Assembly (NCBI GenBank): GCA_963707215.1
Contig: CAVPPB010000003.1
Coordinates: 96,001-160,000 of the forward strand
Length of the DNA: 64,000 nucleotides
Source of the DNA: an uncultured Chloroflexia bacterium
Lineage (GTDB): Bacteria; Chloroflexota; Limnocylindria; Limnocylindrales; CSP1-4
Reading direction: 5' to 3'
Every line of letters begins with the position of its first letter. The first letter of the stretch is position 1. The translations under genes were made by a program, and so were the position numbers. The notes under the pieces are model-generated. The model worked only from the letters and a program-made list of their open reading frames with translations. It was not told the DNA's origin and ran no database searches. This document shows positions 1,309 to 4,295 of the stretch, one piece after another.

Positions 1309-2850
1309 ATGTCCGCGCAGCTTCGCCTCCGTGACACCCTGCGACGATCGGTCGAGCCGGTCGAGATCCCGGACGGCCCCGTCCGCATGTACACCTGCGG
1401 GCCCACCGTCTACCGCTACGCTCACGTCGGCAACCTGCGCAGCTACCTTCTCGCGGACCTGATCCGCAGGGCCCTCCTCTACCACGGTCACCACGTACGC
1501 CATGTCAAGAACATCACCGATGTCGGCCACCTGCGCGACGAACGGCTCGATCAGGGTGAGGACCGGATGCTCGTCCAGGCCGGCCTCGAGGGAAGGAGCC
1601 CTGCCGAGATCGCCCATGCCTACGAGGCGGCCTTCCACGCCGACGAGGCGCTGGTCAACATCCTTCCTGCCCATGTGTTCCCGCGGGCCACTGAGCACAT
1701 CCCCGAGATGGTCGAGATCGTCGAACAGCTCGAGGACGCGGGAGCCGCCTATCGGTCGGAAGCGGGAAACGTCTACTTCGCCGTCGCACGGGCGGCCGGC
1801 TACGGGCGGCTCTCGGGCAACAGCCTCGACGAACTCCGAGCCGGCCACCGCGGCCAGATCGAGAGCGACAAGCGTGACCCGGCCGACTTCGCCCTCTGGA
1901 AGGCCGCCGGCGAGGGTCGTCTGCTGAAGTGGCCGACCACGCGCTACGGCGAGGGCTTTCCGGGTTGGCACATCGAGTGCTCGGCGATGGCGCTCCGCTA
2001 CCTGGGCGACCGCTTCGAGATCCACACCGGCGGCATCGACAACGTCTTCCCCCACCATGAGGACGAGATCGCCCAGTCGTCGGCGCTGACCGGGATCGTG
2101 CCGGCCGCCCACTGGGTCCACGGTGAGTTCCTGCTCATGGCCGGCCGCAAGATGGCCAAGTCGGCGGGCAACTTCCAGCGGATCACCGAGCTCCTGGACG
2201 AGGGCCTCGACCCCCTGGCGTTCCGCTACCTCTGCCTCACCGCTCGCTACGGTCGCAAGCTCGAGTACTCGACCGAGTCCATCCGGGCAGCCGCGGCCGG
2301 GTTGCGGTCGCTGCGGTCTGCGGTCGCCGACCTCGGGCCGGCTCCGATGACCGGACCGTGGACTCCCGATGCCCCCGTCATCGCGGGCCGCGCCCCCGGC
2401 CATCCGGTGGGTCTCGCCGAAGGGCCCACCGGCCACGGTCGCGGGACGGCGCCGCCGGTCCGCGACCGATCGCTGCTCCCGGCGCTCCCCTTCTCCCCGA
2501 CCGGGGCAGAGCTGCACCGTCGCTTCGTGACCGCCATCGACGACGATCTGGACACGCCAGCGGCTCTCGCGGTCGTTCGCGACATGCCGAGGGCTGGACT
2601 CGGTCCCGACGAGGCCCGTTGGCTCGTTCTCGACGCCGACCTGATCCTCGGTCTCGACCTCCATCGGTCCCCGGCGCCGCCCAGCGACGCTGACACGCCC
2701 GCGGCGGTCCGGGAGCTCCTCCGGCGACGGGCGATCGCCCGAGCCACCCACGACTACGCCGAGGCCGACGCGATCCGCGACGAGTTGGCCGACGAGGGTT
2801 GGCTCGTGGAGGATCGCTCGGACGGCACCTCGAGCGCCCGTCGAGGCTAG
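1309..2850 (+). CDS. cysS: Cysteine--tRNA ligase
   Basis: MYTCGPTVY, HVGN (HIGH), DFALWK, PGWHIECSAM, FPHHEDE, KMAKS (KMSKS), DDDLDTP helical domain and C-terminal anticodon-binding domain. Start trimmed from ORF 505..2850. Confidence 0.95.
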   Translation: MSAQLRLRDTLRRSVEPVEIPDGPVRMYTCGPTVYRYAHVGNLRSYLLADLIRRALLYHGHHVRHVKNITDVGHLRDERLDQGEDRMLVQAGLEGRSPAEIAHAYEAAFHADEALVNILPAHVFPRATEHIPEMVEIVEQLEDAGAAYRSEAGNVYFAVARAAGYGRLSGNSLDELRAGHRGQIESDKRDPADFALWKAAGEGRLLKWPTTRYGEGFPGWHIECSAMALRYLGDRFEIHTGGIDNVFPHHEDEIAQSSALTGIVPAAHWVHGEFLLMAGRKMAKSAGNFQRITELLDEGLDPLAFRYLCLTARYGRKLEYSTESIRAAAAGLRSLRSAVADLGPAPMTGPWTPDAPVIAGRAPGHPVGLAEGPTGHGRGTAPPVRDRSLLPALPFSPTGAELHRRFVTAIDDDLDTPAALAVVRDMPRAGLGPDEARWLVLDADLILGLDLHRSPAPPSDADTPAAVRELLRRRAIARATHDYAEADAIRDELADEGWLVEDRSDGTSSARRG

Positions 2851-2860
2851 GCTCCCGTGA

Positions 2861-3853
2861 TCAGGATCGCCGGCTCGCGATCAAGAGGTCGCTCCGTCCC
2901 CTGAAGCGGTCGAGGATGCGGTAGAAGTTCCGGCGACTGAGGCGCTCCCGCTCGTCCTCAGGGAGGCTCGTGTAGCCCCGGTGCTCATGGCGGGCCAACG
3001 GCAGGACCAATCGGACCGCGCGCCGCGGCGGCCGCTCAGGGCCCTCGTCGCGGAGGACCAGGCTCCACCAGATGTCCAGGTTGCGGTAGAAGCGGAACCG
3101 CTCATCGAGAGGTCCCCGCTCGGCAGCGTCGCTCCGTCGGAACGCCTGGCAGTAGCCCTCGATCGCGTCGACGTCACCTGGCGGCGCGTCCTCGAACCGC
3201 CGAAGGTCGTCGGAGACGATCCCCCAGCCACCGGCGACCGCCACGGTCGGGTCGACAAGGGCATCGCGGAGCGGCGCCAGGAAGTCACCCTCTGGTTCGA
3301 GGCTCGTGTCGAGCAGGACGACCATCTCTCCTGTAGCCCGTCGGATGCCGCCGTTGGTCGCTGCACCGTGGCCCAGCCGCGCCGACGTCCGGAGGATCTC
3401 GACGACCGGTGGGCCATCCAGGTCGATGGCGTCCAGGGCCACGACCTGCTCCGGGGAGGGGTCGTCGGCCACGATCACCAGCTGTGTGTCGGGCGGCACA
3501 TGGCGCCGCAGGCCAGCGAGGCAGCGCTCGAGGTCGGCCGGCCAGTCGGTCGCCAACAGGACGACCGTGGCCGCTGTCATCGGTGCCTCGTCGAGCCGCG
3601 AGGGGACGCTCTCACTCCGACCGTACCGGACGAGGGCACCGTCTGCGACATCCGGCGGATGGACCGTCTCCAGCCGGTATGAGAGCCCCTGGTCGACGAC
3701 CCGCCACCCGCGCGCCTCGAGCTCGGATCGCAGGCGATCGGCGGCCTCCCACTCCTTGCCCGCGCGGGCGAGGGCCCGCTCGTCTGCAAGCGCCCGAACG
3801 TCGTCGGGGATCTCCGTCGATCCTTTCGAGCGAGGGCTAGCCGGCTCGCTCAT
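2861..3853 (-). CDS. GT2/GT-A-fold glycosyltransferase-like protein with an N-terminal CysRS C-terminal (anticodon-binding-like) domain
   Basis: N-terminal ERALARAGKEWEAADRLRSELEARGWRVVD; then ATVVLL...LERCLAGL...LVIVADDPS, LGHGAATNGGIRRATGEMVVLLDTS and GPLDERFRFY, typical of GT2. Confidence 0.85.
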   Translation of the reverse strand: MSEPASPRSKGSTEIPDDVRALADERALARAGKEWEAADRLRSELEARGWRVVDQGLSYRLETVHPPDVADGALVRYGRSESVPSRLDEAPMTAATVVLLATDWPADLERCLAGLRRHVPPDTQLVIVADDPSPEQVVALDAIDLDGPPVVEILRTSARLGHGAATNGGIRRATGEMVVLLDTSLEPEGDFLAPLRDALVDPTVAVAGGWGIVSDDLRRFEDAPPGDVDAIEGYCQAFRRSDAAERGPLDERFRFYRNLDIWWSLVLRDEGPERPPRRAVRLVLPLARHEHRGYTSLPEDERERLSRRNFYRILDRFRGRSDLLIASRRS

Positions 3854-4295
3854 GCGGCACCCCCTCGTCGCTCGGTCCGACCCGCCCCGACGGGCCTCGA
3901 TCTTCATCCCGGTTCTGCAGGGCCACGGCCGCCCCGCGGAAGTACTCGAGCAGTCGCTCGCGGGCCGAGGTCGGCGCATCGCTCGCCTCGACGGCGCGGC
4001 GCATGTGCCAGAGCCAACGCTCGCGCGCGGTCGGCCCGATCCAGAACGGGAAGTGCCGGGCGCGCAGACGGGGGTGGCCACGCTCGAGGCTGTAGGTCGG
4101 GGGACCTCCCCAGTACTGGGCCAGGAACAGGCCGAGCCGGCGACGAGCGCCGCCGAGGTCGGCTTCTGGGTACAGGGGGCGGAGCACCTCATCAGCTTCG
4201 ACGCCGGCGTAGAACGATGCGACGAGCGCCTCGAAGAACGGCATCCCGCCGACCTCCTCGTAGAGGGACGGAGTGGTCGGGGCGTCCTGGCTCAT
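3837..4295 (-). CDS. glbO: Group II truncated hemoglobin (GlbO-like)
   Basis: SLYEEVGG...FYAGV..D..LRPLYP...FLAQYWGGP..YS..RGHPRLRARH..F.IG...RERWL..M. Confidence 0.92.
   Translation of the reverse strand: MSQDAPTTPSLYEEVGGMPFFEALVASFYAGVEADEVLRPLYPEADLGGARRRLGLFLAQYWGGPPTYSLERGHPRLRARHFPFWIGPTARERWLWHMRRAVEASDAPTSARERLLEYFRGAAVALQNRDEDRGPSGRVGPSDEGVPHERAG

Follow-up and report, generated by a model that had tools for sequence, protein, structure and literature searches.

Why should a glycosyltransferase carry the part of cysteinyl-tRNA synthetase (CysRS) that reads an anticodon? The question is raised by a convergent gene pair in a 64-kb stretch of DNA (the window) from an uncultured soil Chloroflexia bacterium (contig CAVPPB010000003.1, positions 96,001 to 160,000), in which the gene for the protein P0001 lies tail-to-tail with a cysS gene encoding the protein P0002. 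The window has a G+C content of 71%; its source genome (G000) comprises 3.26 Mb in five contigs and is 85% complete, and its nearest relatives belong to Candidatus Limnocylindrales/Limnocylindria of the phylum Chloroflexota. P0001 is predicted to be a cytoplasmic glycosyltransferase (GT) of family 2 (GT2; GT-A fold), the N-terminal domain of which would be a functional duplicate of the anticodon-binding domain found in CysRS. The reading that we favour, with a probability of roughly 45%, is that P0001 docks on the anticodon of tRNACys and transfers a sugar to tRNACys or to Cys-tRNA.

The first step is the identity of the N-terminal segment. The initial annotation had counted 18 identities in 39 positions between the N-terminus of P0001 and the C-terminus of the neighbouring CysRS, and a recount on the translations gives the same figure. 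By BLASTP, residues 6-55 of P0001 align without gaps to residues 454-503 of P0002 (20 of 50 identical; pairwise E 5e-6). The CysS_C model (PF23493) matched residues 14-55 of P0001 at 21.0 bits (E 3.6e-4) in hmmscan, just below the 23-bit cut-off, and the same stretch scored 24.1 bits, above the cut-off, in a six-frame search of the genome, which returned three CysS_C matches with E < 0.001 in all. The relatives P0242 and P0254 scored 27.4 and 25.6 bits, respectively. Residues 15-65 were modelled with AlphaFold2 from 37 sequences, with a predicted local distance difference test (pLDDT) score of 94.7. The best match of this model among 350,542 PDB chains compared with Foldseek is Escherichia coli CysRS with tRNACys (1u0b_B), with a template modelling (TM) score of 0.83 and a root-mean-square deviation of 1.1 Å over 46 columns, and the second best is the Borrelia CysRS (3sp1_B; TM 0.80). 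The E-values of these two matches are weak (0.05 and 0.07, respectively) because the domain is short (51 residues). The other matches in the top 15 have TM scores of 0.45 or less, apart from the second Borrelia chain (3sp1_A; TM 0.69), and a few low-probability matches with TM scores of 0.5-0.67 occur further down the list. A phmmer comparison of the whole of P0001 with the PDB returned weak GT2 matches and CysRS at E 0.09 only. As judged from sequence comparison and structure prediction, the N-terminal segment is a genuine CysRS anticodon-binding domain, and the CysRS C-terminal fold suspected in the initial annotation is matched by the predicted structure. Like the C-terminal domain of E. 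coli CysRS (residues ~403-461; 1U0B), this predicted domain consists of two helices and a beta-hairpin and contains the residues that read G34; unlike in bacterial CysRSs, it is placed at the N-terminus of a glycosyltransferase and is not accompanied by a synthetase catalytic domain.

Residues 17-54 of P0001 align without gaps to residues 414-451 of E. coli CysRS (1li5/1u0b; phmmer), so placed that R26, R30, W35, D39, and D54 of P0001 are equivalent to R423, R427, W432, D436, and D451, respectively. A passage of PMC12684709, citing Hauenstein et al. 2004, describes G34 of tRNACys as hydrogen-bonded to Arg427 and Asp436 and stacked on Trp432, with a water network that includes Asp436 and Arg423. 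To follow these residues through the family, P0001 was aligned with 79 of the 150 best representatives at 50% identity, i.e. those of ~300-360 amino acids (aa) that were matched in one stretch, after fragments and long forms had been dropped; these 80 representatives share 33-64% identity with P0001. The only invariant columns are R26, R30, D39, and D54. Position 35 is always aromatic (Trp in 58, Phe in 16, and Tyr in 6), G49 and W50 are nearly invariant, and the N-domain as a whole is the best-conserved part of the protein. In a set of 120 close homologues, R26, R30, and D39 are present in all 120, and position 35 is Trp in 108 and Phe in 12. The reader residues remain invariant in members with diverged GT motifs, and they therefore appear to be selected for something besides supporting catalysis.

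More than 3,198 homologues of P0001 were found among 8,000 candidates scored, and the family comprises 231 clusters at 50% identity with E < 1e-30. Its members are named in existing databases as 'glycosyltransferase', 'hypothetical protein' or, wrongly, 'cysteinyl-tRNA synthetase'. When 61 genomes of the class were searched for the CysRS catalytic domain and for P0001, the GT was present in 43. In eight genomes (G016, G058, G028, G004, G022, G055, G034, and G013), the GT and a CysRS catalytic domain are joined in a single open frame of 720-786 aa, and this statement holds without G058, a genome marked as unpublished. In two further genomes, the two matches are adjacent on the same strand, in separate open frames in G052 and in one shared frame with a split CysRS part in G043. 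The fusion protein P0244 (736 aa) contains tRNA-synt_1e (residues 16-325), CysS_C (425-463), and GT2 (502-613) domains; its CysRS motifs (CGPT, HIGN, WHIECS, HHEDE, and KMAKS) are intact, and it scores 404 bits against the cysS model. Outside the class, the family hidden Markov model (HMM) matches 23 of 135 sampled Chloroflexota genomes at E <=2e-55, nearly all over the full length. Fourteen regions from outside the class comprise seven fusions (open frames of 737-896 aa; G+C 0.48-0.73), four stand-alone forms, and three proteins of a different family with a C-terminal CysS_C. Four of the fusion genomes outside the class contain three CysRS-type genes each, of which the fusion is an extra one. 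With one fusion as the query, 73 of 78 loci in a collection scan span both halves; among these are loci from Thermogemmatispora carboxidivorans, T. aurantia, T. tikiterensis, and Dictyobacter aurantiacus as well as from metagenome-assembled genomes (MAGs) labelled Ktedonobacteraceae, Chloroflexia, Roseiflexaceae, Chloroheliaceae, and Dehalococcoidia. Whole CysRS fusions thus occur in at least four named classes. By sequence, P0001 is the short form of a Chloroflexota-wide family, the other form of which is a complete CysRS-GT2 fusion; of the synthetase, the short form retains the anticodon reader alone. Our full-text literature searches returned no paper that describes CysRS fused to a glycosyltransferase or CysS_C in proteins other than CysRS.

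A separate family of ~350 aa was noticed in three genomes of other Chloroflexota (L122:351-1394, plus strand; L123:1311-2366 and L124:1225-2280, minus strand). CysS_C is placed at the C-terminus of these proteins (32.7-34.8 bits), the first 300 residues are not matched by any Pfam model, and an HMM made from GT N-domains scores their reader at 49-61 bits versus 24-29 bits for housekeeping CysRSs. They share the CysRS reader with P0001, but their other catalytic part and domain order differ. No member was found in the source genome, where the CysS_C matches at E < 0.001 are the three mentioned above.

The second step concerns the partner gene. P0002 matches tRNA-synt_1e (3.1e-88) and CysS_C (2e-8) in Pfam and scores 364 bits against the TIGR00435 cysS model (cut-off 340). 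It consists of a part with full catalytic motifs, an insertion at residues ~340-400, and an anticodon-binding domain of its own at the C-terminus. An alignment of 41 P0002 orthologues shows no variation in the Zn ligands or in the HIGH and KMSKS motifs (C30, H39-N42, W220-C224, H249-E253, and K281-S285), nor in R474, R478, D487, and D502 of the anticodon domain; since all catalytic and anticodon-reading residues are kept, P0002 is predicted to be a working CysRS. A second CysRS gene of the genome lies outside the window (G000:C3, ~645.6-647.0 kb, minus strand). In a tree of 21 CysRS-type sequences, a selection from 10 genomes plus P0244, this second CysRS groups with the sole CysRS of sister genomes and is therefore of the housekeeping type. 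P0002 groups with its counterparts from G050 and G038 (support 100/100), and its clade is sister to the fused-CysRS clade (89/88) within a clade (98/98) to which the CysRS of family f4 belongs as well. On this phylogenetic evidence, the cysS beside the GT gene represents an accessory paralogue from the fused-CysRS lineage. The linkage to cysS proposed in the initial annotation is accordingly retained in part: the convergent pair is kept in 69 of 80 close loci, with a spacing of < 100 bp to ~1.9 kb, but the neighbour is the accessory paralogue and not the housekeeping cysS. In eight of the 80 loci, cysS is absent although 3.4 kb or more is available downstream, and three are too short to judge. 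Together with the CysRS-GT2 fusions found across Chloroflexota, the 69 convergent pairs bear out the expected conservation of the CysRS association.

Three minor observations concern these cysS genes. The housekeeping cysS (L001:1474-2887) is split into a 358-aa open reading frame (ORF; catalytic part) that overlaps a 172-aa ORF (DALR and CysS_C), a frameshift or an assembly error of a long-read MAG. In G059 (L139:3159-4773, minus strand), the cysS paralogue beside the GT lies in two frames, corresponding to P0002 residues 5-237 and 236-511; the GT there keeps its catalytic motifs, and the split may reflect decay or a sequencing error. In L014 and L073, a GT (63% identical) with a convergent cysS is present on contigs labelled as Verrucomicrobiia and Saccharimonadales MAGs; since all other close loci are labelled Chloroflexota, these contigs are probably mis-binned.

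The third step is the catalytic part. GT2 (PF00535) matches residues 105-220 of P0001 at E 4.4e-12 (46.7 bits versus a cut-off of 23.3), and the best sequence matches of this part are generic GT2 enzymes. The AlphaFold2 model of the whole protein (pLDDT 94.6, predicted TM score (pTM) 0.90) matches GT-A structures at E 1e-9 to 3e-11 in Foldseek; the best is ppGalNAc-T2 (E 2.7e-11), and others are WrtF, the Leptospira protein 6p61, and the chondroitin polymerase K4CP, the sequence identity to solved GT structures being 14-18%. The pLDDT and pTM values indicate that, in the model, the reader is joined rigidly to the GT as a single body. The GT motifs are D130-D131, D182-T-S184, E186, D190, D260, and H289-E-H-R292. 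Among the 120 close homologues, D182, S184, D250, E251, and D260 are each present in all 120, H289 in 117, E290 in 111 (118 when Asp is included), H291 in 119, and R292 in 120; T183 is found in 104, and the motif residues are otherwise kept in 105-120. GT2 enzymes and ppGalNAc-Ts (GT27) have the GT-A fold in common, and P0001 resembles the latter in an acidic motif after the fourth strand and in C-terminal histidines, which we take to be comparable to the D-x-H plus His metal site of ppGalNAc-Ts. P0001 differs from GT2 and GT27 enzymes in having D-T-S in place of D-x-D, i.e. Ser for the second Asp, in the family-specific H-E-H-R, in the predicted RNA-reader domain, and in being soluble, without a lectin or membrane part. 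By analogy, D130/D131, D182, D260, and H289/H291 may serve as nucleotide-sugar, metal, and base residues. P0001 looks catalytically competent from its motifs, and the reader appears to be the sole constant of the wider family.

The integrity of the GT motifs was compared with the CysRS content of 18 genomes of the window's own family. Six contain a P0002-type cysS, and the motifs are intact in five of these (G000, G050, G059, G029, and G038). In the 12 genomes without a P0002-type cysS, the motifs are intact in one, partial in two (G023 and G041), and diverged in nine (G002, G005, G008, G014, G017, G020, G026, G032, and G035). Contrasts between intact and diverged motifs are seen inside genera g3 and g4, and the motifs are intact in 15 of 15 GTs of family f4 and in all fusions compared. 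These comparisons are suggestive of a link between GT motif integrity and CysRS lineage; the genomes are related, and the counts are not a statistical result.

These data can be assembled into a mechanism. Through its Arg-Arg-aromatic-Asp set, the N-domain would dock on the GCA anticodon of tRNACys, as its conservation suggests; the GT domain, packed rigidly on the N-domain, would bind a nucleotide-sugar through D130/D131, D182, and H289/H291 and would hand it over to some group of the docked tRNACys. The likelier acceptor in the model is a nucleotide of the anticodon arm, and the alternative is the cysteinyl group of Cys-tRNA. The anticodon arm is favoured because the reader and the GT are rigid and the ends of a tRNA are far apart: according to a passage of PMC4519929, up to ~70 Å separates the functional ends when a tRNA is bound to a synthetase. 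The enzyme would work alongside one CysRS lineage, to which the GT is fused in many classes and with which it is encoded tail-to-tail here. Because the CysRS reader is kept, the cysS link is present in 69 of 80 loci, and full fusions exist, a tether to tRNACys is the best reading of the locus. P0001 and its relatives would then be putative enzymes directed to a single tRNA through a domain taken over from a synthetase. A broader and more tentative proposal, which we regard as possible and somewhat doubtful, is that the CysRS-GT2 fusions and the short form are a new kind of tRNA enzyme, a GT that is aimed at a single tRNA by an anticodon reader and glycosylates either the anticodon arm of tRNACys or the cysteine of Cys-tRNACys; a CysRS lineage reserved for this purpose would produce or accept the species so modified.

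Partial precedents exist. An excerpt of PMC8762117 describes a bacterial SepRS that is fused to a ThrRS-type editing domain and acts on tRNACys; there, too, a second catalytic domain is aimed at tRNACys by synthetase fusion, but its activity, as described in that excerpt, is hydrolytic editing at the acceptor end, whereas the P0001 family has a glycosyltransferase beside an anticodon reader. The family spans several Chloroflexota classes, abundant in soil and freshwater, and since the fusion is present in cultured Thermogemmatispora and Dictyobacter, the proposal is directly testable. To our knowledge, enzymes that borrow a synthetase anticodon reader for one tRNA are rare, and we know of none that is a glycosyltransferase. 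If true, the proposal would represent the first glycosylation of a bacterial tRNA or aminoacyl-tRNA; a positive outcome would add a new kind of modification of tRNA or aminoacyl-tRNA and a new explanation of why synthetase genes are duplicated, and a negative outcome would still define a conserved CysRS partner.

Several points weigh against sugar transfer to tRNACys. We know of no GT-A enzyme that acts on a bacterial tRNA or aminoacyl-tRNA. The eukaryotic enzymes QTGAL/B3GNTL1 and QTMAN/GTDC1 place a sugar on queuosine in tRNATyr and tRNAAsp and have no aminoacyl-tRNA synthetase domain; they resemble the proposed enzyme in that the sugar is placed on an anticodon-loop nucleoside of particular tRNAs, but tRNACys (GCA) has no queuosine, so that what is known of sugars on tRNA does not extend to this case. 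ARAGORN found a single tRNACys(GCA) gene (C1:51458-51534) and no special isoacceptor in the genome, which is 85% complete. In the fusions, the same reader residues are needed for ordinary aminoacylation, and hence only the stand-alone forms carry weight; all proteins compared keep these residues, except for two fusions with His at position 26. In the family comparison described above, G047 has the P0002-type paralogue but lacks the GT His pair, G053 has an intact GT without a second CysRS, and the association between GT motifs and CysRS lineage is drawn from related genomes with few independent events. Among the 80 representatives of the 50%-identity clusters, position 182 is Asp in 34 and Glu in 6, D260 is kept in 42, and His is found at both 289 and 291 in 15; D182 is thus lacking in 46 clusters and the double His in 65, and the sequences suggest that the GT domain of much of the family may be non-catalytic.

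The last of these points leads to a different reading, in which the protein is a tRNACys binder with a mainly non-catalytic GT-like domain that serves as a sensor, chaperone, or sequestering factor, e.g. by coupling the level or charging of tRNACys to nucleotide-sugar status or by handing tRNACys to the partner CysRS. The invariance of the reader next to variable GT motifs would fit, as would the genomes of genus g5, in which the protein is retained although its C-terminal motif has diverged and a single CysRS is present. In the clade of the window, however, the motifs are under the strict selection seen in the 120 close homologues, and all fusions compared keep them; on these sequence grounds, catalysis is very probably retained here, and we consider a non-catalytic role quite unlikely for P0001. 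The diverged members may simply be in decay since their partner CysRS was lost.

The resemblance to thiol biosynthesis was also weighed. In a tRNA-free pathway, the CysRS half would activate cysteine and pass it to an amino-sugar or another acceptor made or held by the GT; the product would be a conjugate of Cys and sugar, e.g. a low-molecular-weight thiol, and the anticodon domain would be an inherited scaffold that keeps the GT in position. The fusion of a cysteine-activating enzyme with a sugar transferase has the appearance expected of a Cys-glycoside pathway in two steps, and an excerpt of PMC2922099 describes MshC as a CysRS paralogue that works without tRNA. MshB-like deacetylases were detected in 49 of 61 genomes of the class (111-221 bits versus a 224-bit cut-off), short MshC-like paralogues occur in the class, so that GlcN-thiol chemistry may exist there, and BshC was not found. 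The mycothiol pathway (MshA, MshB, MshC, and MshD) is indeed similar in that a CysRS relative is linked to sugar chemistry. However, MshC, tRNA-free as described in that excerpt, has no anticodon domain, whereas the anticodon domain is the best-kept part of the P0001 family, which retains the reader with its G34 residues even in stand-alone forms without a CysRS catalytic part. The MshC-like clade (clade 'a' of the CysRS tree; 325-382 bits to the MshC model, below the cut-off) consists of short proteins that, like MshC, have no CysS_C match and cover only positions 1-389 out of 466 in the cysS model. The MshB-like gene and the GT are not distributed together, the former being present in all three genomes of family f2, which have no GT, and detected in only one of five genomes of genus g19, which have the fusion; in the source genome the MshB-like gene scores 190 bits versus 224 and is unlinked to the GT, with unrelated neighbours (G000:C3:1634562-1635473; L149:7533-8477). 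No conserved deacetylase, acetyltransferase, or sugar-nucleotide gene was found beside the GT or the fusion. A tRNA-free Cys-sugar pathway therefore seems unlikely to us.

The mycothiol analogy drawn in the initial annotation fails in its particulars as well. MshA is a GT4 (GT-B) enzyme, and P0001 is a GT2 protein with the GT-A fold. P0002 reaches 226 bits and the fusion P0244 217 bits against the MshC model (TIGR03447; cut-off 485), and P0002 keeps its anticodon domain. The best match to the MshA model (TIGR03449) in the genome lies at another locus (137 bits versus a cut-off of 462). With these scores, the untracked MshB-like gene, and no BshC found, mycothiol or bacillithiol synthesis was rejected as the principal explanation. 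As a separate observation, short MshC-like CysRS paralogues are present in Limnocylindria families f3 and f4 (L095:1574-2833, L106:1232-2656, and L090:1663-2862); together with the MshB-like genes, they hint at a mycothiol-like thiol outside Actinomycetota, although the window's family has the MshB-like gene and not the MshC-like one. In addition, a HAD-type phosphatase is encoded directly upstream of the genome's best MshA-model GT4 (L150:3261-5315; G000:C1, ~679.3-681.3 kb), an arrangement reminiscent of a sugar-phosphate synthase and the phosphatase that goes with it.

The gene neighbourhood was surveyed by clustering crude gene calls from 89 loci and by Pfam searches on the flanks of fusions and family f4 GTs. 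Besides cysS, the recurrent neighbours are genes for a peptide-binding protein, peptidases, a rhomboid protein, an ankyrin protein, arginase, and FabF; no sugar-nucleotide, deacetylase, or thiol genes were found in these flanks. This survey also bears on the plainest explanation, namely that P0001 is an ordinary cell-envelope or polysaccharide GT2 and that its CysRS likeness and its position beside cysS are of no functional meaning. Relatives are indeed called simply glycosyltransferase in NCBI records, and the generic GT2 enzymes matched by the GT part would agree with such a role. P0001, however, contains no membrane segment and lies in no envelope gene cluster, its N-domain is the best-conserved part with CysRS as the top PDB match, and whole fusions are spread over several classes as described above; we regard this explanation as highly improbable.

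The organization of the locus is summarized in Table 1. The ends of the cysS and GT frames (2850 and 2861) agree with the 10-bp separation of the stop codons noted in the initial annotation, and the coordinates likewise support the overlap of 17 nt between the GT gene, the start ATG of which is at 3853, and glbO. A Shine-Dalgarno-like GAGGGGG is located 8 nt upstream of this ATG. The conserved stretch of the linker also occurs between CysS_C and the GT in fusion proteins, and in P0001 it is modelled at high confidence by AlphaFold2 as short strands and coil.

Table 1. Features of the cysS-GT locus (positions in the 64-kb window)
Feature	Position	Strand	Basis
Accessory cysteinyl-tRNA synthetase paralogue (P0002, 513 aa), predicted	1309..2850	+	Pfam, TIGR00435, orthologue alignment, CysRS tree
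CysS_C anticodon-binding domain of P0002, residues 461-506	2689..2826	+	PF23493, E 2e-8, 34.6 bits
10-bp spacer between the convergent stop codons of the P0002 and P0001 genes	2851..2860	.	ORF ends
Whole CysS_C-GT2 gene (P0001, 330 aa, soluble)	2861..3853	-	Translation, homologues, AlphaFold2 model
P0001 GT-A fold glycosyltransferase domain, residues 93-330, predicted	2864..3577	-	Pfam GT2, Foldseek
P0001 linker, residues 64-92	3578..3664	-	Conserved RYG.S..VPSRL.EP stretch
P0001 N-terminal CysRS-type anticodon-binding domain, residues 14-63, predicted	3665..3814	-	Pfam, BLASTP, phmmer, AlphaFold2, Foldseek
glbO-type truncated haemoglobin	3837..4295	-	Pfam Bac_globin, 5.5e-32

The linkage to glbO turned out to be incidental: glbO is found upstream of the GT in two of 80 close loci, and it is a neighbour in this genome that lies outside the conserved unit. 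No tRNACys gene is present within the window. Outside it, ARAGORN also called a tRNASec(TCA) and an odd tRNA with a two-base anticodon, at G000:C3:1213406-1213504 and G000:C1:225137-225218 (coordinates of the two calls listed jointly).

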